Positions 973 through 15,620 of a stretch of 64,000 nucleotides of DNA are shown one piece after another. The translations under genes and the position numbers were made by a program. Below the pieces are notes generated by a model. That model was not told where the DNA came from, did no database searches, and worked only from the letters and a program-made list of their open reading frames with translations. Positions within the stretch are counted from its first letter, which is position 1. Each line of letters opens with the position of its first letter. The DNA lies in the NCBI GenBank assembly GCA_963790205.1, contig CAWBNQ010000005.1, positions 320,001 to 384,000 on the forward strand, given 5' to 3'. This stretch comes from Nitrospirota bacterium (lineage in GTDB: Bacteria > Nitrospirota > UBA9217).

Positions 973-2274
973 GGCTCTCCCGGGTTTAGCATGGATACAT
1001 GTCTAGCCCGCCGCAGTGAAAGTAAATTGCTGTCTTGAAGTGTTCCTTGTTCCGAAATCCGTAGGCCATCTTTTTGATTGTCTGTATCTTGCTGTTGAGC
1101 CCTTCGCTGACCGCATTCGTTATGCGGTGCTGAAGATAAGTCAGAACGTTAGCAATATGTCTTTTGATCGTTCCTGCTGCGTCAATGATTGGCTTCAGCC
1201 TGCTGTGTGTTGCCCAGAAATACCACCGCTTCCAGAATTTCCTCGCTGACTCGGCATAGTTGTAATGCCACAACTTCCGAAACGTCTCCTTGATGGCCCA
1301 CGCGCGTCCTACCTTCAACTCAAGCTTTTGTAATGCGGCAAATTCCCTGCGGCGTTTCTCCGGAACGTTCTCCTTGCTGTACAGCCACAAGTACTTACTC
1401 CCCTTGAGCGTTTCGTCACCTTCTTTCATCCGCTGCCGATGTTCCTGCTTTCGTACCGTGTCTACCGCTTTCCCGAGGTAGCCCATAATGTGGAACCGGT
1501 CGAAAACGATCTTGCTCTCGGCACCAGGCACATGGGCACGCGTCGCCTCAAGGTAGGGCTCCCACATGTCCATTGCAACCGCCTCGAGGCCTTCTAATTG
1601 CTCCGGCGTCAGACTCTTGTAATAGCTCTCCAGACTGCTCTGTTTGCGGTCATCCTCGATGTGCTCTACCGTGCCTCCGTCTATATCGCTTACCAGCGTC
1701 AGGTATGTATGACCCTTGGCAATGGCTTTCTCATCGACGCCGATCCGGGGAACGACGCGGTCTTGTTTCCGAAGCTTTCCGCGCTCTACGGCGCGTTCCA
1801 TGAGGTTCCATGCTTCGTCCCAGCTTATCCGCAAGATCTTCGTGGCCCCGGTTATATCGCACTCCCGAAGAACATCTATGGCCAACCGCTCAAATAAAAC
1901 CGTGAATCGTGACTTCGGTTCCGCCCAAGGGACCCGAACCTGCAAAATCCCATGCTCTGCACACGTTATGCGGGGAATACGCGCATGCAAGTACGTCTTG
2001 AACTGGCAACTGTCAAGGTGACGCCATAACCGCTCTTCGGCATGATCATAGACCGTCGACTCCTTCGAGCATTCCGGACAAGACCATACTGCGTCCTTCT
2101 CATGTTCCACCCATACATCTACCCGCTGCTGCTTTACATCCAGTTCAACTTGACTGACACTCCAGGGTGACTTCAATCCCAGCAATTGCTGATAAAGTCC
2201 GGTATCCTGCATGATCGCCTCCTCAGGCGACCATCCTATCACATATTTCTACCCACGGGAAAGCCGGAAGAATC
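973..2274 (-). mobile_element. ISL3-family insertion sequence
   Basis: Imperfect 25-bp IRs (GGCTCTCCCGGGTTTAGCATGGATA vs GATTCTTCCGGCTTTCCCGTGGGTA) and 8-bp target duplication AAAATAAT at 965-972 and 2275-2282. Confidence 0.93.
986..2212 (-). CDS. ISL3-family transposase
   Basis: CPEC zinc finger, GVDE, AMDMW, FDRFH and NAVSEGLNSKIQ...AYGFRN motifs; start taken at MQDTG. Confidence 0.95.
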   Translation of the reverse strand: MQDTGLYQQLLGLKSPWSVSQVELDVKQQRVDVWVEHEKDAVWSCPECSKESTVYDHAEERLWRHLDSCQFKTYLHARIPRITCAEHGILQVRVPWAEPKSRFTVLFERLAIDVLRECDITGATKILRISWDEAWNLMERAVERGKLRKQDRVVPRIGVDEKAIAKGHTYLTLVSDIDGGTVEHIEDDRKQSSLESYYKSLTPEQLEGLEAVAMDMWEPYLEATRAHVPGAESKIVFDRFHIMGYLGKAVDTVRKQEHRQRMKEGDETLKGSKYLWLYSKENVPEKRRREFAALQKLELKVGRAWAIKETFRKLWHYNYAESARKFWKRWYFWATHSRLKPIIDAAGTIKRHIANVLTYLQHRITNAVSEGLNSKIQTIKKMAYGFRNKEHFKTAIYFHCGGLDMYPC

Positions 2275-2380
2275 AAAATAATAAGCGTCTGACGGCAAAT
2301 GCTTTCGGTACCGGAGGAGAAGTTCCCTGACAGAAAGTTTTGAGAGATTACATGCATCAGAGTCCATGGTACATCCCCTT

Positions 2381-2968
2381 TCAGGCGGGAGAGGTCGGGT
2401 CTTTTTTCTTTATAATATAGTTGTCAGGATTTTCATCACCCTGGAGGAACCTGCGGGAATCGTATTCCCAAGGGAAGCATTCTCCCTTTACGGTGTCGCA
2501 GGCTATGCAGGCAGGGACCCAATTCTCCCTGCAGCGCTCCCCGTTATTTAAATCACTGGACCTATGATATGGCTCTAGATGTTGTTTCCGAGGATCAGTC
2601 CTAATGCCCAAAGTATGATCGGCAACTCCAAGAATCATTTCATACAAATCTTGCTGAGATGTTTCGAACAGTGCAAGTCTGTTTTTATCAAGATGAACCA
2701 GCATAGCAACAAGAGCCGTTCTTTTATTCCCGTTATAAAAAGGACGATCATTGCATAAGCCATAGGCAAGTGTTGCAGCATTGCCTATGGGGTCTGGATA
2801 TTTTAGAGTATTACCGATACTTGTATCTTGTCTGAAAACAGCAGAAGCGAGCAAATCAAGGCTTCGAGTACCAGGAGGAGAAATAGGATCACCTGACTCT
2901 GCAAAATCTTCTACCAAAAATTCATGTATTTGAAGAACATCTTCAATGGACAATGTCTCTATCGACAT
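2381..2968 (-). CDS. Fic/Doc-family protein, catalytic His replaced, probably chimeric C-terminus
   Basis: Doc-like N-terminus; motif reads RPFYNGNKRTA instead of HPFxxGNKRT. Confidence 0.75.
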   Translation of the reverse strand: MSIETLSIEDVLQIHEFLVEDFAESGDPISPPGTRSLDLLASAVFRQDTSIGNTLKYPDPIGNAATLAYGLCNDRPFYNGNKRTALVAMLVHLDKNRLALFETSQQDLYEMILGVADHTLGIRTDPRKQHLEPYHRSSDLNNGERCRENWVPACIACDTVKGECFPWEYDSRRFLQGDENPDNYIIKKKDPTSPA

Positions 2969-3296
2969 TATTATCTCCCAGCGTATAGCGTTGAGATCAC
3001 TGTATTATTCATTTTATTTTGAATATACGCTTTGAATCGAGGGCTGTCAACGATATTGATTGGCAGATAGAATACTCAATGGGTAGTAAGCAAATAATTT
3101 TCAAGTGAAGTGTTAAACAGTTTCAAAGAATGTCAACAGCATCTTTCAGGAAGTGTCCGTCAATGCATGACTGTATCATAAAATTAAAACTTCATACGTA
3201 CTTTTCAGTGATGGTAAGCAAATAACGTGCTGTGAAAGAGGTGCCTGTTTAATCGGGGACCACTGTCCGGTTTCCGCGACAATCGGTGACCGACGT

Positions 3297-5135
3297 CTAA
3301 CTGTTATTAATATCTTCTTCGATCTCCATAGAGGTACCTGCATCATGGTCGGCCGCCCTCTTATCCCCAAACGGCTCCCGTTTCTTTCTTTCGACCGCTT
3401 CATTTGACTGAGCGGCCTGCTCCGTCTTTTGTGCAAACGATTCTTGTTCGTCAACGATGTTTTTAAGCAGGAGATCATTGCGTACGTCAAAGGGCTCCTG
3501 GCGTTCCGCATAGTGTTTGTATTGAAAGCGGATTTTGGTGATAGAGTAATTTGCGATCTTTAAATATGCCTCCAGGTCCTCAAGGTTCATGATTTCGCTG
3601 GGCATCACCAGGTCCTTTTCGCGCGTGCGCTGCATGAGGGAAACGCCGTCCCTGTTATCTGCCACCCCCATTGAAAGCGTCTGGTCGGTTTCGAGCACTT
3701 CGGTCCTTCCGATACGGTCGGACAGGTATTTTGCCGTAGTCGGATCGGACACCCTGAAGATAAGGCTGTTGCCGCAGGCGTTCAATATTGATTGCGAAAA
3801 TTCCGGGGAGTAAATCTTGTCGATCTGCCCTTTGTCCTGGATTCCGATAAAAACAGCGCCGCCCTTGCTCCGTGACAGGGTCAGGAGATCCTTGATCGTT
3901 GACAACCTCTGGAGCGTCCCGAATTCATCAAGGATAAAGAATATTCTGCGCTCGCGGTCGTCCTTCATGGAAAGAAGCTTCCGGCCGAGGAGGTCGACGA
4001 AGAGCGAAAGAATCGGCCGCAAGGTGTCCTTTACGTCTGCGGAGTTCGTAATAAAAATAGTCCCCGGGCTGGGATCATTCAGCCAGTTCGTGATGCTGAA
4101 TTTCCCGTCCACCTTGGCCATGTATTCAAAGCTCTTCACATACTGCATCATGACCGCGGCCACGCTCATGGCCTGCTTGGAGCTCGCGTCCTGGATGTAG
4201 ACGTATCCTCGCTCACCCCCTTTCGTATTCTTAAGCCAACCCGCGATATTTGTGATCGGCGCGGTGACAGCCGTCCAGATGGATCCGTTCGACAGCGCAT
4301 CGTTCTGATAAAGGTGGTGAAGAATTCCGCTGAACACGTCACGGGCCGCGTCATTCCAGAACGGGTCCTGCATATAGGACTGAGAGATCAGGCTGTACGC
4401 CGTAGCGTCGATGTCCATGTACGCCGTAAGCTCGTTAAAGAGGTTCCAGCCCAGGCAGCGCTTATCAAGGGGGTTAAAGATGATGTCCCGCTTAGGGTCG
4501 TAGAACTTGGCGAGATAGTCTCCCTTGAAGTCGTAGACGATCATTTTTTCTTCGCGCTTGATAAGCGTCTCGATCATTTGACTTGCCTGGTTCGTTTTGC
4601 CGGTTCCCGGAGCACCGATAAAAAGAAGATGCTTGACCTCGGCGTCCTTGGGCAAGTTCACCGGCCCGACCGGAAGATCGGGTTTGTCTCCATCGGGTCC
4701 CATCTTCCTGGATTTCATCTTCCTGGTAAGCTCTTCGGGGGTGATCAAGAGCGCCCCCCTGACATATTTATCGCGGCCCTGCTCTTTTGCGCGCTTTTTA
4801 AAATAAGCCAGCAGGAGCGGGTAAACCGCAAGGTAGCTGGGAATTCCGGAAACAACAAAGAGTGCGAACAATTTCCAAAGCATTCCATAAAACGCGTCCC
4901 GCAGATAGCCGTCCTGAACTCTTGAAAGCGGGTTAAGGAGACGGTCGGACATGCAGCGTCCGTAATGGAGCGCAAGCCTCATCGATCCCTCGGGCATGAA
5001 AATCATACTCACAATCACAAAGATGACGATATTGACCACAAAGCAGTACATGAAAATTGCCGAGTACATCTTTACGGCCATGCGAAAGGCATTCCACCAT
5101 GTCTCGTGGCCTTGATAGGCACTGTTCTTGTACAT
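3297..5135 (-). CDS. traD: Type IV coupling protein, TraD/TrwB family
   Basis: Two N-terminal TM segments, Walker A GAPGTGKT, YDFKGDY, FNPLDKR, Walker B FILDEF, SRSKGG..IGIQ. Confidence 0.93.
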   Translation of the reverse strand: MYKNSAYQGHETWWNAFRMAVKMYSAIFMYCFVVNIVIFVIVSMIFMPEGSMRLALHYGRCMSDRLLNPLSRVQDGYLRDAFYGMLWKLFALFVVSGIPSYLAVYPLLLAYFKKRAKEQGRDKYVRGALLITPEELTRKMKSRKMGPDGDKPDLPVGPVNLPKDAEVKHLLFIGAPGTGKTNQASQMIETLIKREEKMIVYDFKGDYLAKFYDPKRDIIFNPLDKRCLGWNLFNELTAYMDIDATAYSLISQSYMQDPFWNDAARDVFSGILHHLYQNDALSNGSIWTAVTAPITNIAGWLKNTKGGERGYVYIQDASSKQAMSVAAVMMQYVKSFEYMAKVDGKFSITNWLNDPSPGTIFITNSADVKDTLRPILSLFVDLLGRKLLSMKDDRERRIFFILDEFGTLQRLSTIKDLLTLSRSKGGAVFIGIQDKGQIDKIYSPEFSQSILNACGNSLIFRVSDPTTAKYLSDRIGRTEVLETDQTLSMGVADNRDGVSLMQRTREKDLVMPSEIMNLEDLEAYLKIANYSITKIRFQYKHYAERQEPFDVRNDLLLKNIVDEQESFAQKTEQAAQSNEAVERKKREPFGDKRAADHDAGTSMEIEEDINNS

Positions 5136-5150
5136 CCCATAACCTCCTCG

Positions 5151-5537
5151 TCAGCTCACCAACGATGCTACAAGAGCCGCGGTCTCGGAATCAGATTCCC
5201 CATGGTTGTCACCATTTTCCCGTGAGGCCCCCGACGGTACCGGAGAACCGGCCGGATTTGATCGATCCTTCCGGGAAACGGCCGGGTTGCTCCCCGGCTT
5301 TGGAACATTCGAACCAGACCGATCAGCAGGCCGGCAGGGCTGCCGTTCTTCCGATGACAGCGCTGCCGGCTTTTTTGCCAGGGAACATCCCGAGAGGCAG
5401 CCAAGCAACAGGCGTTTCAGAAACTCGTTTCGGGATTGGTCCACTTGGCTGACCCGTTTCTGAAGCAAGTCAAACAGCCTGCGGTCATCGTCCTTCTTGA
5501 GATTGAGACGCACTGATATGATCTCTATGTCCGCCAT
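5151..5537 (-). CDS. Ribbon-helix-helix protein, ParR-like adaptor
   Basis: Start MADIEIISVRLNL overlaps the parM end; RHH-like N-terminus, disordered linker and short C-terminal helix. Confidence 0.6.
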   Translation of the reverse strand: MADIEIISVRLNLKKDDDRRLFDLLQKRVSQVDQSRNEFLKRLLLGCLSGCSLAKKPAALSSEERQPCRPADRSGSNVPKPGSNPAVSRKDRSNPAGSPVPSGASRENGDNHGESDSETAALVASLVS

Positions 5538-6540
5538 GTGAGCCCTCTGCGCCGTTTTGGTCGGGCATCGCCTTAGCCGCCCTGTAGAAGCCGATGACGT
5601 TGGCGAACCGCGGGTTCTGGTGCACCAGGAAATGCCGATTGAGGGCCAGGATTTCATCTCGAAGGAGCAGCGCGCCCCCTCCGGTCAGCACAACCTTGTC
5701 CGGCCGTATCTCGCTCAGAACTACCTTGATTTCGTCGGTGACATCCCTGGCCATTTGTGACTTGTACTGGGTGGTGCGCTTCCAGAAATCCTGCCGCACG
5801 ACCTCTCCGTTGACTTTCAAAGTCGAGCTGCCGAAATGGTGAATGATGTTCCTGTGGATTTTGACCTCTTCGTTCGGCCTCATCTTGCCGTACTCGGATT
5901 CAAGGTCGGCCTTTATCTTTCCGAACAACTGGATCATGCCGGACAGACTTGAGGCCCTCCTGGCCGCGAGTTTGCCGCGCTCCAGAATGACGAAATTGAT
6001 CGTCCCGTACCCGATATCCACGATTGCCATCTGATCATGGAAGTACGGGCTCGTCTTCTGGTACCGGAAATTCTCGTCGAGCACGAGAGAAAGATAGGTT
6101 CCCAGGGGCTCGGCCATGACGTTCGCCCTGAGCGTGAAAGTGATGGACTTCTCGTTGATAATGGCGTGCTTCGTGCCGGAATATATCTCTTTGACCCTAT
6201 CGACCTTTTGCCTGCTGGTTGCCGTGCTGACCGGGAGGCCGAGGACGATATCGGCTTCGGTAATGCCCATCCTGGCAAGGGCAAGCAGGATGAAGGGGAT
6301 GTTGATTTCGTCGCTCTTTTCCTCGTCGGTCTTCCACACGAAGCTGGTTCCCAGCACAGCGTCCTCGCCGAGGATGAGGTCCTCGCCGTTGTACCGGATC
6401 GCCGATAATTGAGCCCCCGGGTCCGCCACGATCTGCGCAAGCCGCCCCCCTGCCCGCCACTTGGGGATTTCCCCAGATCCCTTGTCCGAGACGTACTTGA
6501 CGCTTGAATTGCCGATATCGACGCCTACTTTGTCCGCCAT
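5485..6540 (-). CDS. parM: ParM/StbA actin-like partition ATPase
   Basis: Actin-fold motifs VDIGNSSVK, AEP, IVDIGYGT and LTGGGA. Confidence 0.9.
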   Translation of the reverse strand: MADKVGVDIGNSSVKYVSDKGSGEIPKWRAGGRLAQIVADPGAQLSAIRYNGEDLILGEDAVLGTSFVWKTDEEKSDEINIPFILLALARMGITEADIVLGLPVSTATSRQKVDRVKEIYSGTKHAIINEKSITFTLRANVMAEPLGTYLSLVLDENFRYQKTSPYFHDQMAIVDIGYGTINFVILERGKLAARRASSLSGMIQLFGKIKADLESEYGKMRPNEEVKIHRNIIHHFGSSTLKVNGEVVRQDFWKRTTQYKSQMARDVTDEIKVVLSEIRPDKVVLTGGGALLLRDEILALNRHFLVHQNPRFANVIGFYRAAKAMPDQNGAEGSHGGHRDHISASQSQEGR

Positions 6541-6559
6541 ATTCCTCTCCTTTCAGATT

Positions 6560-6577
6560 TGATGTGATGTCACATCA
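6560..6577. promoter_or_regulatory. Palindromic operator TGATGTGATGTCACATCA upstream of parM
   Basis: 8-2-8 palindrome, 17/18 identical to 7063-7080. Confidence 0.7.
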
Positions 6578-6650
6578 TTTTTTACGATGCTTTAGCAATG
6601 AATTACCGGAAGTTTGAATTTCCGATGACTAAGATATCTTCGCCGCATTT

Positions 6651-7025
6651 TCATTGTCTGCCAAGTTGTCTCGACACAAATGGTGAAGCCTGGCCGAGTA
6701 ACATGATAATTCGATGTTGCTCGGCTGACCTCTTGTCCAACAAGGCAACGATACGTTTAATCTCTTTGAGTTCCGGACTATGTCCGTTGCCGTCACCGGA
6801 AGCGTTGAGGCCAGCCGATATGATTTTGAATTCCTCCCGGAGGGCCTCGATTTCCCGTAAATGGTTGTCCTTGATCTCCTGAAGGATTTCGACAAATGAT
6901 CGTTTGTCGTGGTCGTTTCTGATCAGGTCCCTGATGTAGTCGGAAAGGGTCTTTCCGTTTCTCATCGCTCCTGCTTCGAGGATCTTTTGATCGTTGTCTG
7001 TCAGCTTTACTCCCAGAAATGGCAT
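6651..7025 (-). CDS. RHH DNA-binding protein with coiled coil (relaxosome accessory-like)
   Basis: FLGVKLT..QKILEAGAMRNGKTLSDYIRDLI RHH pattern; lies next to the oriT-like region. Confidence 0.7.
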   Translation of the reverse strand: MPFLGVKLTDNDQKILEAGAMRNGKTLSDYIRDLIRNDHDKRSFVEILQEIKDNHLREIEALREEFKIISAGLNASGDGNGHSPELKEIKRIVALLDKRSAEQHRIIMLLGQASPFVSRQLGRQ

Positions 7026-7058
7026 CTCGTTTTCCCTCCCGATACTGACGCAATTCTG

Positions 7059-7089
7059 AAAGTGATGTGATGTTACATCACATCACTTT
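7059..7089. promoter_or_regulatory. Perfect 15-1-15 palindrome AAAGTGATGTGATGT-T-ACATCACATCACTTT
   Basis: Directly visible upstream of the RHH gene. Confidence 0.75.
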
Positions 7090-7101
7090 TGAAACCGATG
7101 A

Positions 7102-7345
7102 ACGGTTAAACGGCGTTTAACCGTGAAATTGCTGAAATAAATCCCTCAAGACACGTACCTGGTTAAACGCACCGTTTAACCGTAAAAACGTCGATAAAAC
7201 AATCAAATGCCGCATGTTCCGCATCCTCATGTTTAACACGCCGCTCAACGTTAGTTGAGTGGTGTGTGATGGACGACGTTCCGAACGCCGAAAGGAGCTG
7301 CCCGAACGGCAGCCACTCAAAGCTACTACATACAAGCAGTGATGC
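7102..7345. other. Candidate oriT region
   Basis: Non-coding gap between relaxase and RHH gene with two GGTTAAACG/CGTTTAACC IRs and further hairpins. Confidence 0.5.
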
Positions 7346-7362
7346 CCGTGCGAGAAATACAA

Positions 7363-10279
7363 TCACATCTCATGTTCCAGAACCTTCTGCTGCTGACGCG
7401 ACTCGTGTTCCTGCGATTTTCCCGGGTGAGGCATCTCCCTGAGACCGGCTCTTTCCTGGACCCGTTCCCCTCGCTGAATTTTCTCAGCTTCTGATTGCTT
7501 TATTTCCCAACTTGACGACTTCGTCAGATAGGTATTTAATGCTTCCCGTAAAGCTTCCGGGTCCCTGAAGTGGAGAGAAAGCTCCTGGTTCTCCCTTGTC
7601 CCCGCAACGTACGTCCTTTGGAAATCTTGAAAGTCCCTTCCGACCGCCCTTGGCGCCGTAGCTCCCTGGCTCTTATCCACAGTGCCCACATACCCGTACC
7701 GAAAGTAGTTATATTTATCGAGCGGGACATGGGTCTCCTCTGTCTCCCCTTTTTTGAGGTCAATGATTCGCTCCACTACCATGTGTCTGCCGCCTTCACT
7801 GATCTGCTTTACAAAAGCCATGTCGCCGTTCCTGACCCCGATTTTGCCGCTGCCGTGCAGTGAGTTTTTAAGGAACATGATCTTCTCGCCCCGGCTCAGG
7901 GGAATCTGGCGTTCGCTGTACGCAGTTATGTCCATGCCGTGATCCTTTACATCGATAGTATGCTTATTTCTAAACGTGACGCGAATGTGCCGTTCTCCGT
8001 CAACTTCGGACAAACCAAGATCCCGTGAGCTTATCGCGTAGGTTTCCGGGCGCGGCCGGCTCACGAAAAAGCAACCCCCGCACTTCATCTCTGCCGGTGA
8101 TCTGCAGGATGGTACCCCGGTTGGGCACCCCTTTCCATTTCCTGTTGATTTGGATGTAATCCCCGTCCTGGTAATTCTGGACGAAGTGGCGTTCCGCGTC
8201 GGACCGGAAGGAAACCGGTTCTTTTATCATGACCATGACCTCCTTCCGGCCGATCTCCCCGCGATCCCTGAGGGCAGCATGAAACCGGTCCCCTCCCTCG
8301 CGGACCTGCACGTTGGTCGTGGCCATGGAAATGGTGTTTTTCCAGTCCTTCATGACCTCATCGAATGCGTTTTCAGCCCGTTTCAAGTCGTCCTGCTCGT
8401 AGTGAATTGCTCCGGCTTTTTCGAGGGCGTCGATGATCTTTTCGGCCTTTCGTTCGACAAAGGCCTGCGAGATATCATGCTCCGGCGATCCCTCCCGCTG
8501 CCTCACGATATCCGTCAGATAGGCGCTGGCGATCTTCCGGTCGTCCTGGATGTCGTCAAACGGCTTGCCGGCGGCAACCGATGGAATCTGCCATCGGTCC
8601 CCGGAAAGAATGACCCGGCTGCCGGCGTCCGCTGCCATACGAAGCAGCTGGTTAAGCTGCCGGCTGCCGACCATCGAAGCTTCATCGATCACGTAAACCG
8701 TACCCGCATTCATGACTTCATGCTGTAAAAATGAATGAATGGTAGAGCTTTCGATCCCGCTCGCGTTCTTGAGTTCCCCTGCTGCCTTCCCCGTAAAAGC
8801 CAGTCCACGGACCGAGAAACCCCGCCCGGTAAACTCCCGGCTCAGCTCCTTAAAAAGGGTCGTTTTGCCGGTGCCGGCGTAGCCCTGCATGATCACAATG
8901 CGGTCGTTTGCGCTCATCACGGTCGTATAGGCCTCCCGCTGACTCTTTGTGAGGCCGCGCTCTCCGTTGATCCTGACAGCGTCGGCTTTCTCCCTGGCGA
9001 GATCCTTTTCCATCAGAGGCCGGACCTGACCCACTCCCTCCCTCGTCATGGCAATGTTTTCTGCCTCGATACGCTCCATGCCCGGCGTGGTGATGTGCCT
9101 GCCGTCTCCCGAAAGGTCCCGGAGATTGCGACCGTCTTTTAAAAGAGCGCCGGCGGCTCGCTCAAGGTCCTCGATCCTGTAGGCGGTCGGGAAAAGCTGC
9201 GCTGTCTGAAGCACCAGGTCCCGGCTGCTGAATACGCTTTCCCCGTGGCTCAGAACGTCCGCGGCCTTGATAACCGCATCCCGGGCAGTAGGCTGCTGCG
9301 CGTACTTTATAAGCGCCGCTTCCTTCGCGCGGTCGATCCTGTCGGCGATGTCGTTATCGGTGTAACCCAGTTGATTGAACCCGGCGCGGAGACTGGATCG
9401 CCATTCTTTTACGTCCGTAACCAGTTCTTTTTTCTTGCGTGTGGCGAGGCAGGCTATTTCTTTCAGTTTCGACTCGGACGCGTTGGGATACAACTGCCGG
9501 AGTTCCGGCAGCCTCTCTTTTATCTGTTGCGACCTGGCCGACGCCTGCTCTATGACCTCTTTCGGCATTCCCGCGAGCTCCACGTTGCCGTGGCTTCTGT
9601 CCAGGAGGGGAACGCCCTGTTCCTTGAGCAGGGTGGCAAACTCGGACATGTGCAGCTGGCCCAAGTACTTCTGATTCTCGAAGACGGGCCTGTTGTCGAT
9701 CGCGCGCCACTTCCCGTCGGCGGTCCGGGTCATATTCAAGAGAAAAGAGTGGGTATGCGTCTGGGGGTCCTGCTCGCGGGAAATATGGTGATCGTAATTG
9801 CCAAAGGCGGCCTTCCCCGTGAATTCAAGCTCGATTCGGCCCTTCTTCCAGATACGCGCGGCAACGAGGTTTCTCTCGATGTAACGATTCGTCTTCGCGA
9901 CAGCATTGTGGTGGGCCGCCATGATCTTTTCCGCAAGCTCCCGGAGCCTCGGGTCCTCGCTATCTTTGTAGGCCTCGACGATCAGAGAAAAGCCCTTGGG
10001 AAGGGAGTACGTGATATCGGTGCCGCCCTCCTTGTCCTGGACCCTGACGGTGCCGTCCGGCTGGGTGTACTCGCGCGCCTCGTACTTGACCAGCTCGGTG
10101 CCTTCCTGGTCCTTGCCCCATACCGCGTTTTTCCAGTCCTCGGGGTCTATTTCGCCCTCGCGGCCCTGCGCCTTCGCAAGATCACCGGACCAAAGTCCTT
10201 TACCCTCCTGGGTGTAGTAGCTGTCTTTTTCGTAATAACCCTGGGCGTCTTTCGCAGCCATGCCGGAAACACTGAACAT
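7363..10279 (-). CDS. trwC: MOBF relaxase-helicase (TrwC/TraI-like), with a +1 frameshift near 8000-8088
   Basis: YYEKDSYY tyrosines, SREQDPQTHTH HUH motif, GYAGTGKT, IDEASM, GDRWQ; the second frame carries YGYVGTVDKSQG; RBS AGGAG before ATG 10279. Confidence 0.92.
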
Positions 10280-10290
10280 AAGGGACTCCT

Positions 10291-10518
10291 TTATGATCGC
10301 GGCCTGGGCGTGCACCGCCGCGACACGTTGTAATCGCTCATTTCGAACAATCCCTCGTCTTTCGGGCCATCAAGGCCGCGAAAAGCATCGCATCGAAATA
10401 TGTTTTTCGGCCGTCCCGAAGTCGATCTCCCGGAAGGGACCCGTTTGACGAAAACGTAGACGTGCCTGCTGCCAACACGGCAAACCTCGTCACCTGGCTT
10501 CAATAATGTCGGCTTCAT
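10291..10518 (-). CDS. Small hypothetical protein
   Basis: RBS GGGAGG upstream; in a co-oriented run before the relaxase. Confidence 0.55.
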   Translation of the reverse strand: MKPTLLKPGDEVCRVGSRHVYVFVKRVPSGRSTSGRPKNIFRCDAFRGLDGPKDEGLFEMSDYNVSRRCTPRPRS

Positions 10519-10729
10519 GTTCTCTGCTCACCTCCCTGTCGATTTCTCCGCCTTTTTTTTCCGTGTTTCCATTGCCTGCGACACGGCAGACCGTGTGAAA
10601 CTTTTTCTTTGGATGATAGACAATGACTTCGGACCTGCCGCCTGACGCGCAGGTAATGCGCTGGCCTTCCTGACCGCATGCCGGGCAGGTTATCCTGGCG
10701 CCTCGTCCGGATTCGGATTGATTCATCAT
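10490..10729 (-). CDS. Small hypothetical protein with CPAC motif
   Basis: RBS AGGAGG upstream; CxxC plus later His/Cys residues. Confidence 0.55.
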   Translation of the reverse strand: MMNQSESGRGARITCPACGQEGQRITCASGGRSEVIVYHPKKKFHTVCRVAGNGNTEKKGGEIDREVSREHEADIIEAR

Positions 10730-10811
10730 GGCCTCCTGGTTGGCCTTACTCTTCCTTCCGGGAGGGAGTCCGGAAGGAAGAGAAGGTTGATATGCTCGAA
10801 GCCCGGCTTCG

Positions 10812-11012
10812 TTACGCGGCCGCGGCGGCTTTCTCTTTCCTTTCCTTCGCGATCAGCCAGCCATCCCAATTGCCGGCCGGGACGACGTTCAGCTTGATTG
10901 ACCGCTTGCCGTCGTTCTCGATCAGGACACCGACGTTTTCCCACTGCGCCTTGCTGTCCTTCTTGTCCTCCGACTTCTCTTCCCTCTTCCAAAGCAGATC
11001 GTAAATCTTCAT
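10812..11012 (-). CDS. Small beta-rich protein, possible ssDNA-binding protein
   Basis: Strong RBS AGGAGGA; W-x-x-VG...GKRSIKLNVVP..WDGWL resembles small mobile-element SSB/DUF736-like proteins. Confidence 0.6.
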   Translation of the reverse strand: MKIYDLLWKREEKSEDKKDSKAQWENVGVLIENDGKRSIKLNVVPAGNWDGWLIAKERKEKAAAAA

Positions 11013-11246
11013 GGTGTTCCTCCTTTGCGGTTTGAAATCCAAAGCAGAGCACCCCCTCCCTCCGGGGGCCTTCACATGCAGACAGGCCCCCGAGGGTAGG
11101 GATGAACACCCCGCGATAATACACATGGCTTTTGCGGGCCGATAAGAATCCTTTAAGCATGCGGCATGACAGAGCGAAGCGATGGCGTGACGGATGCGGG
11201 GATTCAGGCCGCAAAAGTTATCTGGTGCCGCTTTATGAACGGGGTC

Positions 11247-12320
11247 CTATCCTCCGCGAAATAATTCGATTGCCTTGCTCCTGATCGCGTATTTAAAATC
11301 CCTGATTGCCGGGGACATCGTGGCCTTTGCCTGATCGACCCACGTCTCCTTTTCCTGTTCGGGAAGAGCATCGAACTCTGCTGCCATGCGGTCATAGGCC
11401 TCTTCTTCGGCTTTTTTCTTTTGCGCCGCGCCGATTCGTTTCCGCTCTGCCGCTTCCTCTGCCTTTCGCCCGTTTTCGAGCCGGAGATGATACGGGACAT
11501 AATCAAGAGGCGGGGTAACGCCCTCGAAGAGCCCCTTGACCAGGACGGCCACGGGGTCTTTGACCGTCTTCCCGCTTCGCCTGAATGTCGCGATGAGCAT
11601 GTCGAGCGAATCGAAGAGGCGCCTGGCACCGTATTTTTTGGCGAACATCCGTAATTGCTGTTCGTTCAGCTTCTGGAAGGGTGTGCCGTTAATGAGTTTC
11701 GTGATCTCATCGACAACGACGACGGGACCAGCGGTTTCGGAGCTGTCGGCCGTCTCTGACTGCGCTAGCGTCCGCGGCGTGCTTCCCTCGGGTCCTGACC
11801 CGGGCTTTTGGGGGGTGAAGTGGGTTGTTGTATTATTTTTTATTAGTTTTATATTTTCTTTGGGGTGACACTGTGACACCCCGGGGGGTGACATATTGTC
11901 ACCAGGGGGGGTGTCGCCATGACACCGGGGGGCGGGTGTCACCGTGGCACCCGCCCCCTCTATCCCGGTCCCGGAAGAATGGCGAAGTAAAATATACCGG
12001 TTCGTGGCGTCCCCGCCGTCGGGCCGGGACCTGCGCTCGACGCGCAGCAGGCCTTTTTTTGACAGGACCTCGATAGACCGCTGCGCCGTTCGTATGGATA
12101 CGCCGGCGCGCCTTGACAGGCTGTGGACGCTGGGCCGTATCTCCCGGCAGCCCGCGTACGATTTGAGGGCGATCCAGACGAGCTTTTCCGTTCCGGACAG
12201 GTCCGAGCGGTCAAGCATCCAGTTCCAGACGGCGGTAAACGGGTCCCCGCTCTGGTCTCGAATCTCGATTTCGTGATTGAAGCTATTTTGAGGTGGGTTC
12301 ATCGGTTTTCCGTGCACCAC
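11247..12320 (-). CDS. Phage/ICE-type replication initiator (HTH_36 winged helix)
   Basis: LSGTEKLVWIALKSYA...PSVHSLSRRAGVSIRTAQRSIEVLSKKGLL...TNRYIL; repeat-encoded middle region. Confidence 0.8.
   Translation of the reverse strand: MVHGKPMNPPQNSFNHEIEIRDQSGDPFTAVWNWMLDRSDLSGTEKLVWIALKSYAGCREIRPSVHSLSRRAGVSIRTAQRSIEVLSKKGLLRVERRSRPDGGDATNRYILLRHSSGTGIEGAGATVTPAPRCHGDTPPGDNMSPPGVSQCHPKENIKLIKNNTTTHFTPQKPGSGPEGSTPRTLAQSETADSSETAGPVVVVDEITKLINGTPFQKLNEQQLRMFAKKYGARRLFDSLDMLIATFRRSGKTVKDPVAVLVKGLFEGVTPPLDYVPYHLRLENGRKAEEAAERKRIGAAQKKKAEEEAYDRMAAEFDALPEQEKETWVDQAKATMSPAIRDFKYAIRSKAIELFRGG
11831..11956. repeat. Iteron cluster and AT-rich tract inside rep (candidate oriV)
   Basis: Repeated GTGACA/TGTCAC-like units at 11862-11956 beside a T-rich tract at 11831-11861. 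Confidence 0.7.
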
Positions 12321-12419
12321 TGGCTCTTTCCGTCCGGGGGCCGAAAGGCACCCGTGGACTCACTGATCCGCAAACGTTCCCGCAGGCGCACCCCATCGGC
12401 CATTCTCTCATGTATTCTT

Positions 12420-12443
12420 TATATAGTATACTGTATACTATAT
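12420..12443. promoter_or_regulatory. Repressor operator-like palindrome between divergent rep and XRE genes
   Basis: ATATAGTATAC-T-GTATACTATAT; 12420-12437 is 17/18 identical to 13865-13882. Confidence 0.7.
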
Positions 12444-12510
12444 TTTAAAGTCAAGCCTGAAATTGATTTAATGCTTTACATTGCCTTTCAAGTAGTATAT
12501 AGTACACTGT

Positions 12511-12939
12511 ATGAATAGAACGGAATTCGGCGGGTATCTTACGGCAAGAAGAAATAAAATGGGCTTTAGCCTCGTCAAAATGGCTGAAAAGACGGGTCTT
12601 TCTCCGTCGATGCTGAACCAGATGGAGCATGGGGCAATTATAAAACCCAGCTATGATACGCTTCTGAAGGTCTGCAAGGCGTATGATGTGGACGAGAATG
12701 AAACGCGGCGTGTTTTTTTCGAAGAAATCCCGGTATCGGCCTCCAAAGCGAGAAAAGTGGATATTTTGGGCGAGCCCGAAGAACTGATCAGTTTGCTCAA
12801 CAGTTTTTTGATGGAAATTGACAGCAATTTATCCCCCAAAAAGAAGAAAGACTTAATAAATAAGTTCATGAAGGAAAGGGTCGAGAGTAAAAAAACCGTG
12901 GCTGCGGACGCGGGCAAGCATTCGAAAAGGTCCGCGTAG
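12511..12939 (+). CDS. XRE-family HTH repressor
   Basis: FGGYLTARRNKMGFSLVKMAEKTGLSPSMLNQMEHG..KPSYDTLLKVC. Confidence 0.88.
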   Translation: MNRTEFGGYLTARRNKMGFSLVKMAEKTGLSPSMLNQMEHGAIIKPSYDTLLKVCKAYDVDENETRRVFFEEIPVSASKARKVDILGEPEELISLLNSFLMEIDSNLSPKKKKDLINKFMKERVESKKTVAADAGKHSKRSA

Positions 12940-12951
12940 TGAAGAACGTCC

Positions 12952-13416
12952 ATGAACGATACTGAAAATAGGTCGAACAAGATAATTTACTTATCTGAAG
13001 AAGCAATAAAGAGAGGCCGACGGTTGCCTTCGGAGGAAGAGAACGCAAGCGAACTTAAAGATGATTTGAAACAATATCTCCTTAACTATGTCGAGAGCAG
13101 TTCTGCCTCAGAGCCGCTGAACCCCGACAAAGCAAAATGTCCGGTATGCAATAACAATCCGGCTCGCGCCGCGATTACCTGCCCTGACTGCGGCTATCCC
13201 CTCCGCGAACATTTAAAAAAAGAACAGATCGAAGCCAACTGGAGAAAAAGTAAAAAGTGGCTGATCATTCTGGGGTGTTCTTCTTTTGTCGGCTATGTTT
13301 TGTCTGTGAAATTTAATTCATCGTTCATGGCGGTCTTTACGATAATTTTATTGGCTCTTCTATTGCCAATTGTAATAACAAATTTTGGAAGCATCGGTGG
13401 GAAGAAAAGCGCTTAA
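12952..13416 (+). CDS. Zinc-ribbon membrane protein
   Basis: CPVC...CPDCGYP followed by two hydrophobic segments. Confidence 0.7.
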   Translation: MNDTENRSNKIIYLSEEAIKRGRRLPSEEENASELKDDLKQYLLNYVESSSASEPLNPDKAKCPVCNNNPARAAITCPDCGYPLREHLKKEQIEANWRKSKKWLIILGCSSFVGYVLSVKFNSSFMAVFTIILLALLLPIVITNFGSIGGKKSA

Positions 13417-13551
13417 AGTAAGATGGCGTTAAAGGATATATAGTTACAGTCTTAATAGAGGGTGTTCACGCCAGCAGTTTATGATACCAGAGTTAGAAAA
13501 AATGGGGTAACGCTCTCCCGTTGACGGCATCTGGAATAAATGCCTTCATGC

Positions 13552-13797
13552 TCAGCCAGGCCGACTGCGGCTGAACAGCGGGTTGGCTTCTTTTACTTCG
13601 ACGATCTTCTGTTTGACCGGGGCGGGAAGGCTTCTGCCCTTTCCCCGGTAGTTTGTGGTAAGCCCTGCTTCACCGTCACGACGATAAGCTAGCTCTCACC
13701 GCCTTATGGTCTCACCGCTCAGCCCGCGTTCCTGCCGAGTCACCGAAACAGAAACGCTCTCCTCAAGGTGCTTCTTAACTACTTTAAACTTGAAATC
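13552..13797 (-). pseudogene. Degenerate transposase N-terminal HTH fragment (IS481/IS3-like)
   Basis: Manual translation DFKFKVVKKHLEE...ETIRR*ELAYRRDGEAGL...LPAPVKQKIVEVKEANP with a stop at the conserved Trp position (13696-13698). Confidence 0.65.
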
Positions 13798-13864
13798 GGA
13801 TCCCTACCGCTTGAATGGCCGTGTAAAGCAGTAAATCAATATTTAGCTTGACTTCAATATTCAG

Positions 13865-13882
13865 TATACAGTATACTGTATA
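13865..13882. promoter_or_regulatory. Perfect 18-bp palindrome TATACAGTATACTGTATA
   Basis: Lies downstream of a TTGACT -35-like hexamer and upstream of xis-int. Confidence 0.7.
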
Positions 13883-14152
13883 TAAATACTTCACGCAGCA
13901 TAATAGCATGAAACATATGGTGTGGTGTGCACCACACCATATCAAACAGGCGGGACTATGACTGCAATCGAAATTGACATGGACAAATCTACGGTGAAGT
14001 TCGCGAGTGGAGTTGGGGTCAGCGAGATCCCCTTTTAGCAGGATGGGAAATAAAGCCGCCCGGCTGGGTTGCGCTGATCGGCATTGTTATCTATTTTACG
14101 TTTTATCAGGAAATACCAACAAAAAACAGAACGAATAAAGGAAAAAGAAACC

Positions 14153-14467
14153 ATGACGTTTGTAACAGTAAAAGAGCTTTCTAGATTCCTTACAGTCAAA
14201 GAATCGACACTTTACTCATGGGTGCATACCGGCTTAATCCCTTTTCATAAGCTAAATGGGCTGATACGTTTCGACATGGTAGAAATCGAAAACTGGGTCA
14301 AGGCTTCACGCAAAGAACCGCAGAAACAGGAACTTTACATCGTGAAAAAACATCCTCAAGACATAGACTCCATCGTCAAAAGAGCTATTGAAGGCGCAAA
14401 GGGTAAAGAGTATAATCCATCCAACGGGAAACCAGGCCAAATGCAAGGTCTCAGGAAGGAGGTTTAA
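14153..14467 (+). CDS. Excisionase-like HTH_17 protein
   Basis: FVTVKELSRFLTVKESTLYSWVHTGLIPFHKLNGLIRFD; stop overlaps the integrase start. Confidence 0.85.
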   Translation: MTFVTVKELSRFLTVKESTLYSWVHTGLIPFHKLNGLIRFDMVEIENWVKASRKEPQKQELYIVKKHPQDIDSIVKRAIEGAKGKEYNPSNGKPGQMQGLRKEV

Positions 14468-15531
14468 TGGGACTGTTTAAGCGAGGCCAGGTCTGGTGGA
14501 TGAGATTTTCTTTCAATGGTAAGCAGGTAAGAAAGCCGACAGAGACGACCGACAAAAAGCTGGCTGAAAAGATTCACCACAAAGTAATGACTCAGATTGC
14601 AGAGGGCAAGTGGTTTGAAAATCCCATCGGCTCAGACAAGACCGTTCGGGAGCTGTTCGAAAAATATCTGGATGAGCACTCCGCAAAAAATAAAACGGTT
14701 GAAACGTATGAGCGGGACAAGGGCATTGTCAAGATCATCAATCGCCACTTCGGCGATATGCAACTCTCTGCGGTCGGGCCGAAAACCATTTCAGAGTACA
14801 AGGTTATGCGAAGGGACAAGGGCCGGGCTCCAAGTACGGTAAACCGTGAGTTATGCCTTCTCAGTCACGCTTTCAACCTTGCAATCAAAGAATGGGAATG
14901 GATGGATTTTAACCCTGTCTCACACGTCTCACGGGAACGGGTTAATAATCAAGTGGAACGCTGGCTCACTTTTGAAGAGCAAGAGAAAGTTTTAGCCGTC
15001 TCCCCTCTTTGGTTACGGGAAATTATCATCTTTGCCGTGAACACGGGCTGGCGACGATCTGAAATTCTGGCTCTCAAATGGGACAAGGTTGATCTGTTCA
15101 AAAAAACGCTTACCATCTTGGAACAGAAAAACAAGGGTAAGGACACACAGCCATTTAATGAACGCGTCTTGGACGTATTAAAGGCAAGGTACAAGGTTAG
15201 GTCGATTGCATCGAATCTTGTATTTTATGACAGCGAAGGAAAAGAGTTTGACGGCAGGCACGTCTTGAAGGTTTTCACTCGTACAGTCAAGCTGGCAGAG
15301 ATCGCGCATTGCAGGTTTCACGATCTGCGCCATACCTTCGCAACAAGGCTTGTTCAGGCCGGTGTCGATCTTTATAAGGTACAGAAGTTGATGCGTCACA
15401 AATCGCCTATCATGACGCAACGCTATGCGCACCATTATTCGGAGAGTTTACGGGATGGGGTTGATACCTTGGACAGGATTAGCACAAATTTAGCACAGTC
15501 CAATGTAAGTGAAGTGAAAAAAGCCTTGTAA
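14467..15531 (+). CDS. int: Tyrosine recombinase (phage-type integrase)
   Basis: Arm-binding N-terminus, TGWRRSEI, HDLRHT and TQRYAH catalytic motifs. Confidence 0.95.
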   Translation: MGLFKRGQVWWMRFSFNGKQVRKPTETTDKKLAEKIHHKVMTQIAEGKWFENPIGSDKTVRELFEKYLDEHSAKNKTVETYERDKGIVKIINRHFGDMQLSAVGPKTISEYKVMRRDKGRAPSTVNRELCLLSHAFNLAIKEWEWMDFNPVSHVSRERVNNQVERWLTFEEQEKVLAVSPLWLREIIIFAVNTGWRRSEILALKWDKVDLFKKTLTILEQKNKGKDTQPFNERVLDVLKARYKVRSIASNLVFYDSEGKEFDGRHVLKVFTRTVKLAEIAHCRFHDLRHTFATRLVQAGVDLYKVQKLMRHKSPIMTQRYAHHYSESLRDGVDTLDRISTNLAQSNVSEVKKAL

Positions 15532-15544
15532 CCTCTTGTAAAAT

Positions 15545-15620
15545 TGGTGGACGAGAAGGGGCTCGAACCCTCGACCCCCGCATTGCGAACGCGGTGCTCT
15601 CCCAGCTGAGCTACTCGCCC
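15545..15620 (-). tRNA. tRNA-Ala (anticodon CGC)
   Basis: GGGCGAGTAGCTCAGCTGGGAGAGCA-CCGCG-TT-CGC-AA-TGCGG-GGGTCGAGGGTTCGAGCCCCTTCTCGTCCACCA; 76 nt with encoded CCA. Confidence 0.97.

Follow-up and report, generated by a model that had tools for sequence, protein, structure and literature searches.

The stretch of DNA analyzed here, hereafter the window, spans 64,000 nucleotides of contig C5 of a Nitrospirota bacterium (G000:C5:320001-384000; the assembly consists of 14 contigs and is 98% complete). Plain coordinates below are window positions, and those in kb after C5 are contig positions. Next to a tRNA-Ala(CGC) gene, positions 3297-15620 carry the backbone of an integrated element with genes for integration, replication, partition and mobilization. 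A preliminary description of this region, made from the DNA alone, proposed a compact element that excises, persists like a plasmid and is mobilized through the mating pore of a helper. All the genes it listed are present and were recovered by family searches, except that parR has only a candidate and that the relaxase gene turned out to be split by a frameshift.

The tRNA gene occupies 15545-15620 on the minus strand and is the only Rfam match; its 3' end is the probable core of the left attachment site (attL). A 354-aa tyrosine integrase with an open frame and the R, HxxR, H and Y motifs (14467-15531, plus strand) adjoins this site, of which the attL side is present, and a tandem pair of 8-base repeats inside the 3' end of the gene (15479-15497, minus strand) likely represents the integrase arm sites. 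The integrase is preceded by an excisionase-like HTH_17 protein (14084-14467, plus strand, likely start at 14153) that is 92% identical to its counterpart in a related integrative conjugative element (ICE) of the same genome, the 71-kb sister ICE discussed below.

The MOBF relaxase with the N-terminal part of its helicase (TrwC and AAA_30 domains) is encoded at 8000-10315 on the minus strand, with a likely start at 10279. It matches the MobF model NF041492 with 203 bits (cut-off 100) and TIGR02686 with 154 (cut-off 145.5), and sequence inspection shows that the TrwC domain retains two YY pairs and the histidine triad. The C-terminal helicase part lies in another frame (7363-8088, minus strand), separated by a +1 frameshift at a run of five A residues (8066-8070) that cuts off the last two helicase motifs. 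Between the relaxase gene and that of a ribbon-helix-helix (RHH) protein, a 45-base stretch (7234-7278, plus strand) is near-invariant in all five aligned elements and forms a hairpin (fold z -3.6) followed by GTGT, a motif that PMC4176350 describes as the U-turn conserved in most nic sites of the MOBF type. We consider this stretch a candidate origin of transfer (oriT) with its nic site; if so, the relaxase side would be the first to enter the recipient, and the genes on that side point toward oriT. The RHH protein (6651-7025, minus strand; weak NikA-like and DUF6290 matches) is probably a relaxosome accessory protein resembling TrwA or NikA, for which the short palindromes and TGATG-type repeats at 7059-7190 are likely binding sites. 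As proposed in the preliminary description, the element encodes a coupling protein of its own (3297-5135, minus strand), a TrwB/TraD-type protein of 612 aa that matches the TrwB_AAD_bind family and has two predicted N-terminal membrane helices.

The oriT pattern was detected in 3 of 401 genomes, and the reversed control in none. Additional copies of the candidate lie in fetched DNA without a relaxase gene, at G000:C2:358-560 (L131), in G026 (L125) and in G014 (L126); because two of these three copies adjoin contig ends, the relaxase may simply be missing from the assembled sequence. The copy on C2 neighbors two tyrosine recombinases and an 894-aa open reading frame (ORF), which, judging by its N-terminus, we take to be primase-like; the copy in G014 is adjacent to an integrase at tRNA-Gly. 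In the viral contig set, neither relatives of the coupling protein nor the oriT pattern were found. In three relatives that lack a pore or whose pore status could not be read, a predicted secreted protein is encoded shortly downstream of the coupling gene (L030:5983-7797, L031:14951-15778, L132:17134-18246); the two of the three proteins that were scanned had no Pfam match. Conserved in this position, the secreted protein could have a role in transfer or exclusion.

Partition genes are located between the RHH and coupling genes. ParM (5485-6540, minus strand) is an actin-fold ATPase of the actin-like protein (ALP) type, as indicated by family matches, a PHROG partition match and a structural model (mean predicted local distance difference test score, pLDDT, of 81) whose nearest folds are Ta0583, pSK41 ParM, Dh-cParM1 and R1 ParM. 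The ParR candidate (5151-5537, minus strand, starting at 5537) follows parM in all seven aligned elements and consists of two N-terminal helices, a disordered linker and a C-terminal helix; it had no family match, and its model (pLDDT 56) had no fold match. The TGATG-type repeat upstream of parM (6551-6584) could be parC or an RHH operator; the same short repeats are found at oriT copies without parM, and the repeats here may, for this reason, be RHH sites. Plasmids in PLSDB encode only distant ParM homologs, with at most 27% identity among the 12 of 60 matches listed. The view that ParMRC is a system of low-copy plasmids alone does not hold, given that SXT/R391 ICEs are reported to use the actin-type srpMRC (PMC4489591).

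The replication initiator Rep (11247-12320, minus strand) is a phage-O-like winged helix-turn-helix protein (HTH_36, with a PHROG replication-initiator match). Its gene contains 23-25-base repeats (11862-11951), with four similar repeats in the homolog from locus L069, and these are candidate iterons. In sequence terms, Rep has the features of a phage-O-type theta replicon, and with Rep, its internal repeats and ParM, genes that might support the plasmid-like persistence suggested previously are present. Divergently from rep, an XRE-family repressor (12511-12939, plus strand) is 85% identical to the sister ICE repressor and is followed by a zinc-ribbon membrane protein gene, znr (12952-13416, plus strand; 94% identity), possibly encoding a sensor or anti-repressor. 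A 78-base inverted repeat containing a palindromic operator candidate is found twice, between xre and the rep-relaxase genes (12420-12497) and upstream of xis-int (13805-13882). Besides its occurrence in the first repeat, the palindrome is found at 13865 and at both corresponding positions of the sister ICE; elsewhere, there are two single-strand matches with one mismatch each. The xre-znr-xis segment (2266 bases) is 92% identical at the DNA level between the element and the sister ICE, which also has the same operators. Of the gene located after the operator in the sister ICE, only about 55 bases remain here.

The central question is whether a pore exists. No virB4 or pilin gene lies within 3297-15620, as originally described, and no type IV secretion system (T4SS) family was detected by Pfam among 88 ORFs (87 of the 96 listed and one partial) in the 92 kb to the left of the window, C5:228-320 kb. 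The genes in this region encode chemotaxis, cytochrome bd, signaling, respiration, insertion sequence (IS) and defense proteins, and the unannotated ORFs left of the backbone do not form a pore-like operon. Whole-genome six-frame searches with TIGR02746 and TrbI gave matches only on contig C2, and tblastn on C5 yielded no match to the C2 pore genes or to the F-type pore genes of a relative. Searches with PF03135, PF19044 and TIGR00929 were empty throughout the genome, although C2 encodes a VirB4-like protein; given this blindness, we discarded these three models as an absence test. Taking together the family scans, tblastn, and the TIGR02746 and TrbI searches, there is no pore in C5:228-336 kb, and thus no complete set of mating pair formation genes inside the element, the finding that would have made it an ordinary ICE. 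That it is such an ICE, with pore genes unrecognized or unassembled, appears very unlikely: divergent pores do escape detection, as the two Pfam VirB4 models and TIGR00929 show for C2, and the assembly is in 14 contigs, but the models that do see the divergent pore match C2 only, neither pore type matches C5, and the ORFs left of the backbone are otherwise explained or unannotated.

On C2, the sister ICE is located at tRNA-Glu and carries the same set of backbone genes. Its 44-base att duplication is found on C14, across the C2/C14 break, which a paralogous locus spans colinearly. Twenty kb after its coupling gene, a cluster of eight genes (G000:C2:218136-225355; L009:1636-8855) includes matches to pilin, VirB4, VirB8 and VirB10 in a VirB2/3/4/5/6/8/9/10-like layout, without an ORF of VirB11 size. 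The 794-aa VirB4-like protein matches TIGR02746 with an E-value of 3.6e-24 and has 162 homologs, with 45-94% identity among the 120 listed, nearly all of these lacking a Pfam domain or a name; it matched no solved structure by sequence, whether searched singly or as a profile. The cluster recurs with identical gene order in G318 and on the Candidatus Tenderia electrophaga plasmid CP013100.1, which is typed "mobilizable", next to a weak coupling-protein match. Gene content suggests that this cluster is possibly an unclassified conjugative pore, and the same genome would then contain one candidate for the helper T4SS envisaged in the preliminary description. Because the VirB4 models of Pfam miss this clade and a plasmid carrying it is typed as mobilizable, conjugative elements may be hidden among those at present classed as pore-less.

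A close homolog of the coupling protein is encoded in 16 of the 401 sampled Nitrospirota genomes. The closest homolog of known context (77% identity) belongs to an ICE in G064 with a full F-type pore (traL, E, K, B, V, C, N, W, U, trbC, a peptidase S26 gene, traF, H and G), with about 22 kb between the coupling gene and the downstream traC. In the coupling-protein tree, the window protein, that of G064 and those of three metagenome loci form a clade with 97/97 support. MOBF elements bounded by att repeats and lacking a pore occur across Nitrospirota: in G063 (18 kb), G024 (19.5 kb), G014 (16.7 kb), G128 (15 kb) and G293 (24 kb), with att repeats of 15-48 bases and open relaxase frames. Four of these, from G024, G063, G128 and G293, encode both a MOBF relaxase and a coupling protein, whereas that of G014 has the MOBF relaxase, ParM, the ParR candidate and the RHH protein but no coupling protein. 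Where placed in trees, these elements fall outside the clade of the window element; G128 and G293 were not placed. An F-type ICE, a VirB-like sister ICE and pore-less forms share one backbone, and the pore is, on this comparison of gene content, apparently an exchangeable module.

The left boundary bears on both the size and the excision of the element. The preliminary description expected a duplicated tRNA 3' end beyond the left edge; in C5:200-335 kb, there is no exact match longer than 11 bases, and genome-wide searches for an attR core resembling the tRNA 3' end, exactly or with mismatches, produced none that was convincing. An 11-base match inside cheR and a site with three mismatches on C1 were considered as attR and judged to be chance matches. 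Tandem arm-repeat pairs number only four in the genome, each adjoining a tRNA-derived att core, and no second pair could be assigned to the element at tRNA-Ala(CGC) anywhere in the genome. With neither an attR core nor a second arm pair in the assembly, and C5 unbroken for 320 kb left of the window, the excision originally proposed is not borne out for this copy. Because no attR was found, its excision is doubtful, and its activity could extend no further than passing on adjacent DNA, starting at oriT, or supplying its relaxase in trans.

The proposed compactness fares no better: the 12 kb are a backbone, to which the cargo region is attached, and the island likely extends over 80 kb or more. 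Six leading-region ORFs (RadC, ArdC, DUF6573, a second small single-stranded DNA-binding (SSB)-like gene and two others) are located at C5:255.4-258.7k, 61-65 kb past the left edge of the window, with 74-89% identity to L069 and in the orientation expected of a leading region. In L069, the six are just upstream of rep, interspersed with two unrelated ORFs, and in the sister ICE, RadC, ArdC and DUF6573 homologs lie 6-10 kb inside attR. A strongly folding segment between rep and the relaxase genes (11031-11235; fold z -4.5), which we take to be single-strand-promoter-like, has three more copies with 86-90% identity (C5:256.5k, C5:258.8k and C14:358.5k), and these copies precede leading-region genes. 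From the positions of the leading-region ORFs, a size of about 80 kb appears likely, or 105 kb if a DISARM-like cluster farther left, which may come from an older tandem element, is included.

That the element instead measures 13 kb, the cargo and the leading-region genes farther left being separate, older islands, is quite unlikely. Relatives of 15-24 kb do exist, IMEs (integrative mobilizable elements) commonly form tandem arrays according to PMC5704250, and a MazG-like fragment at C5:247.4k together with the DISARM-like cluster at 232-247k suggests an older tandem element. Yet there is no att core or arm pair near 2200-3300; cargo directly follows the coupling gene in the relatives seen; and the distal module has the identity to this lineage and the orientation described above.

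The integration site itself is a hot spot. In 5 of 29 other loci of the family, the same integrase or a remnant of it lies 3' of tRNA-Ala(CGC), and in 5 of 29 the 16-base 3' end of this tRNA is repeated. Because the genes that flank the tRNA in the 29 loci map elsewhere in G000 and are thus rearranged, no empty site could be mapped. The tRNA 3' end is present four times at a spacing of 167 bases in L071:1544-2060 and twice at about 169 bases in L089, L091, L092 and L099; the spaced copies are perhaps scars of repeated integration.

The relaxase frameshift has to be read against the quality of the assembly. In all four close relatives, the relaxase is a single open frame of 943-975 aa. In G000, however, the reading frame is altered in 8 of the 74 conserved genes tested (94 kb), including one antisense frame, one that is perhaps a query fusion, and one that, from its N-terminus, is presumably tryptophanyl-tRNA synthetase, and IS copies contain three single-base insertions in 64 kb. 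Frame changes thus affect conserved genes about once per 12-16 kb, so that single frameshifts in this assembly should not be taken for pseudogenes unless reads confirm them; accordingly, we do not take the relaxase frameshift as decay, and it is possibly an assembly error. One DNA run of low depth has no coverage at the frameshift and revealed no att joint, and it weighs on neither side. A firmer scar, by all appearances marking a rearrangement, is an in-frame fic/doc-HNH fusion (2381-2968, minus strand, junction at 2551) located 750 bases downstream of the coupling gene. Here fic is cut at about residue 139, compared to about 270 aa in most homologs, and continues into the 3' half of an HNH gene, an intact copy of which lies at C5:268k; to the left of 2551, the DNA shares 91% identity with C5:267.7-268.0k.

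Having no VirB4 or other mating-pore genes, the element is not an ICE. It is built like an IME, with the relaxase, oriT candidate and absent pore that make up IME (iMOB)-type content, and deviates from an IME in one feature, the attR that was not found. We propose that it may well be the backbone end of a tRNA-Ala-integrated, modular ICE/IME-family element of Nitrospirota that depends on a helper and whose pore was likely lost from an F-type ICE ancestor, the present copy likely being large (80 kb or more) and, on its sequence, likely unable to excise cleanly. An ordinary F-type ICE being the closest relative whose context is known, loss of a pore has at least the same likelihood as a helper-dependent design of long standing. 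In plasmids, mobility type is described as changing most often through the loss of the pore (PMC9185392). The modules are known, the combination was not found in print, and the family spans both ICE and IME forms.

Several observations weigh against this proposal. Most of the more distant relatives are pore-less: of the 16 genomes with a close coupling-protein homolog, 14 were tested for VirB4, and 10 of these gave no match (thresholds from 0.1 to 1e-6; two of the VirB4-negative genomes are single contigs), a count taken over related, and so not independent, genomes, many of them fragmented. Together with the five att-bounded, pore-less elements, this suggests that the lineage may never have had a pore, and ICE ancestry rests on one relative of known context, the pores of L064, L065 and L069 not being readable. 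The left boundary is inferred, not located, and the frameshift, at a rate of 8 frame-changed genes among 74, is no evidence of decay. Finally, the coupling protein of the sister ICE, the presumed helper, is only 40% identical to that of the element, and the helper pore type differs from the F-type pore of the closest relative.

The strongest alternative, although a distinctly less probable one, is a fully functional, long-established IME that never needed a pore of its own, excises, persists via Rep and ParMRC and uses the pore of the sister ICE. Under this reading, the frameshift would stem from the assembly, and attR would either have diverged or be missing from the assembled sequence. This alternative gains from the bounded pore-less relatives with open relaxase frames, the paucity of VirB4 matches, the rate of assembly frameshifts combined with the open frames of the other backbone genes, and the conservation of the oriT candidate and operators. 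It loses because the bounded elements fall outside the clade of the window element wherever they were placed, because att duplications were easily found in all five of them and in the sister ICE but none above 11 bases in C5:200-335 kb, and because the genome holds no second arm pair while C5 continues leftward for 320 kb. The window copy is a poorer example of the compact IME than its bounded relatives.

It is improbable that the element is a dead remnant, with a truly broken relaxase and a deleted attR, fixed in place and decaying. Signs of decay are the loss of the last two helicase motifs, the fic/HNH fusion, the many IS in the left region and the reduction of the post-operator gene; frame-broken integrase remnants are also common at tRNA-Ala(CGC) in relatives. 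However, assembly error by itself would be expected to leave one frameshift in about 10 kb of coding DNA, and the integrase, coupling protein, ParM, Rep, oriT candidate and operators are intact.

Under the proposed helper-dependent, ICE-derived scheme, the XRE repressor would silence two promoters, those of xis-int and rep-relaxase. Derepression would lead to excision, copying from the repeats inside rep and segregation by ParMR; the relaxase and the RHH protein would nick within 7234-7278, and the coupling protein would hand the strand to a foreign pore. Entry into the recipient would begin with DNA that carries the relaxase and rep genes and, after the att join, the RadC/ArdC anti-defense module. 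The most likely pore donor would be the 71-kb sister ICE, the sole pore-bearing element of the assembly; because the two elements share a near-identical repressor and the same operators, their co-induction is predicted. A precedent is provided by CloDF13, whose coupling protein works with the R388 T4SS; according to the same source, the membrane domains of coupling proteins can contact a foreign T4SS, whereas the soluble domain stays relaxase-specific (PMC7431656).

Among known systems, SXT/R391 ICEs are likewise integrative, stabilize the excised form by srpMRC and have an F-type pore, as does the closest relative of the present element; as described in PMC4489591, they differ in having a pore of their own, srpMR within the int operon, and replication from oriT with TraI. 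The present element, by comparison, targets a tRNA gene, lacks a pore and combines a MOBF relaxase with a separate Rep of the phage-O type. IMEs of the IME_SsalCCHSS3 type and CloDF13 combine a relaxase with their own VirD4-family coupling protein in the absence of a pore, and this protein is proposed to replace that of the helper (PMC5704250, PMC7431656). In the 2017 review, VirD4 IMEs are paired with MobC relaxases (PMC5704250), whereas here a TrwC-type MOBF relaxase occurs with a TrwB/TraD-type protein and ParM; phage-type replisome organizers are among the components of IMEs that this review mentions. SGI1-family IMEs resemble the element in excision, transient replication and partition timed to the helper, with regulatory cross-talk, but hijack the parABS of the helper (PMC10954446), whereas the present element and that of G014 encode ParM and a ParR candidate, and the cross-talk would here stem from the shared repressor. 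R388 trwABC likewise comprises an RHH accessory protein, a TrwB-type coupling protein and a two-domain TrwC-type relaxase-helicase, with an inverted repeat adjoining the nic motif (PMC6362355, PMC4176350); compared with R388, the element is integrative, is arranged in the order relaxase, oriT, RHH, parMR, coupling protein, and would send the relaxase gene first into the recipient. Large elements of the pdCONJ/pMOB and iMOB types, with a relaxase, without a pore and close in trees to a conjugative element, are further counterparts in the accounts consulted (PMC9185392, PMC11389934, bioRxiv 10.64898/2026.01.13.699239). No description of such Nitrospirota elements was found in the literature searched, which included few subscription papers and no supplements.

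With the present element and that of G014, the family supplies pore-less elements with ParMR, set against a 2024 statement that Par systems have not been identified in IMEs (PMC10954446); a ParB-related protein is, however, recorded for a single IME in the 2017 review (PMC5704250). Through G024, G063, G128 and G293, it also supplies pore-less combinations of MOBF with a coupling protein, as opposed to the MobC-only pairing in that review. Its members form, on a single backbone, a natural series for the transition from ICE to IME, and the shared repressor is a testable route to co-induction of hitcher and helper. Tentatively, an as yet undescribed three-tier conjugation network might exist in Nitrospirota, composed of backbone ICEs with either an F-type or the unclassified eight-gene VirB-like pore that lacks VirB11; helper-dependent elements such as the present one, which encode a MOBF relaxase and a coupling protein, a phage-type replicon and an actin partition system of their own and are co-induced with the helper through the shared repressor; and oriT-only elements that use this relaxase in trans.

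The remaining features of the backbone are small genes and IS-related sequences. A 66-aa protein (10812-11012, minus strand; 69-87% identity in relatives) matched neither Pfam nor PHROG and gave only a weak atlas lead to a single-stranded DNA-binding family; it is possibly a small protein of this kind. Two ORFs of 79 and 75 aa (10291-10729, minus strand), without assigned function, are conserved at 56-79% identity in relatives. An IS remnant (13462-13813) is 75% similar to the ends of a 3.1-kb IS with eight copies in the genome. The cargo region starts at an ISL3 insertion (973-2274, minus strand) and runs on past the left edge of the window. In G064, the cargo after the coupling gene (L032:4237-8560) presumably consists of a ubiquitin-like conjugation cluster and an XRE/peptidase pair, as we read the sequence.

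In the DNA left of the window, the DISARM-like cluster (C5:232477-247364; L005, L004) encodes a DrmMI-like methylase, an SNF2 helicase, a 1721-aa DEAD/MZB helicase and three proteins without a family. At C5:303.7-312.0k (L001:3706-11971), a run of genes without a PADLOC match encodes a papain-like peptidase, a 1122-aa TPR-CHAT protein, a C25-like peptidase and two unknown proteins. The segments C5:288893-291373 and C5:293866-296248 are more than 99% identical to DNA of C1 (cytochrome bd genes) and C10 and are either recent duplications or assembly repeats. Elsewhere in the genome, an 8-kb remnant at tRNA-Ala(GGC) (G000:C3:1062464-1070644; L010) contains related int and xis genes, two IS-like insertions and a degenerate att repeat, and carries HNH and response-regulator genes that are also found at positions 1-2550 of the window.

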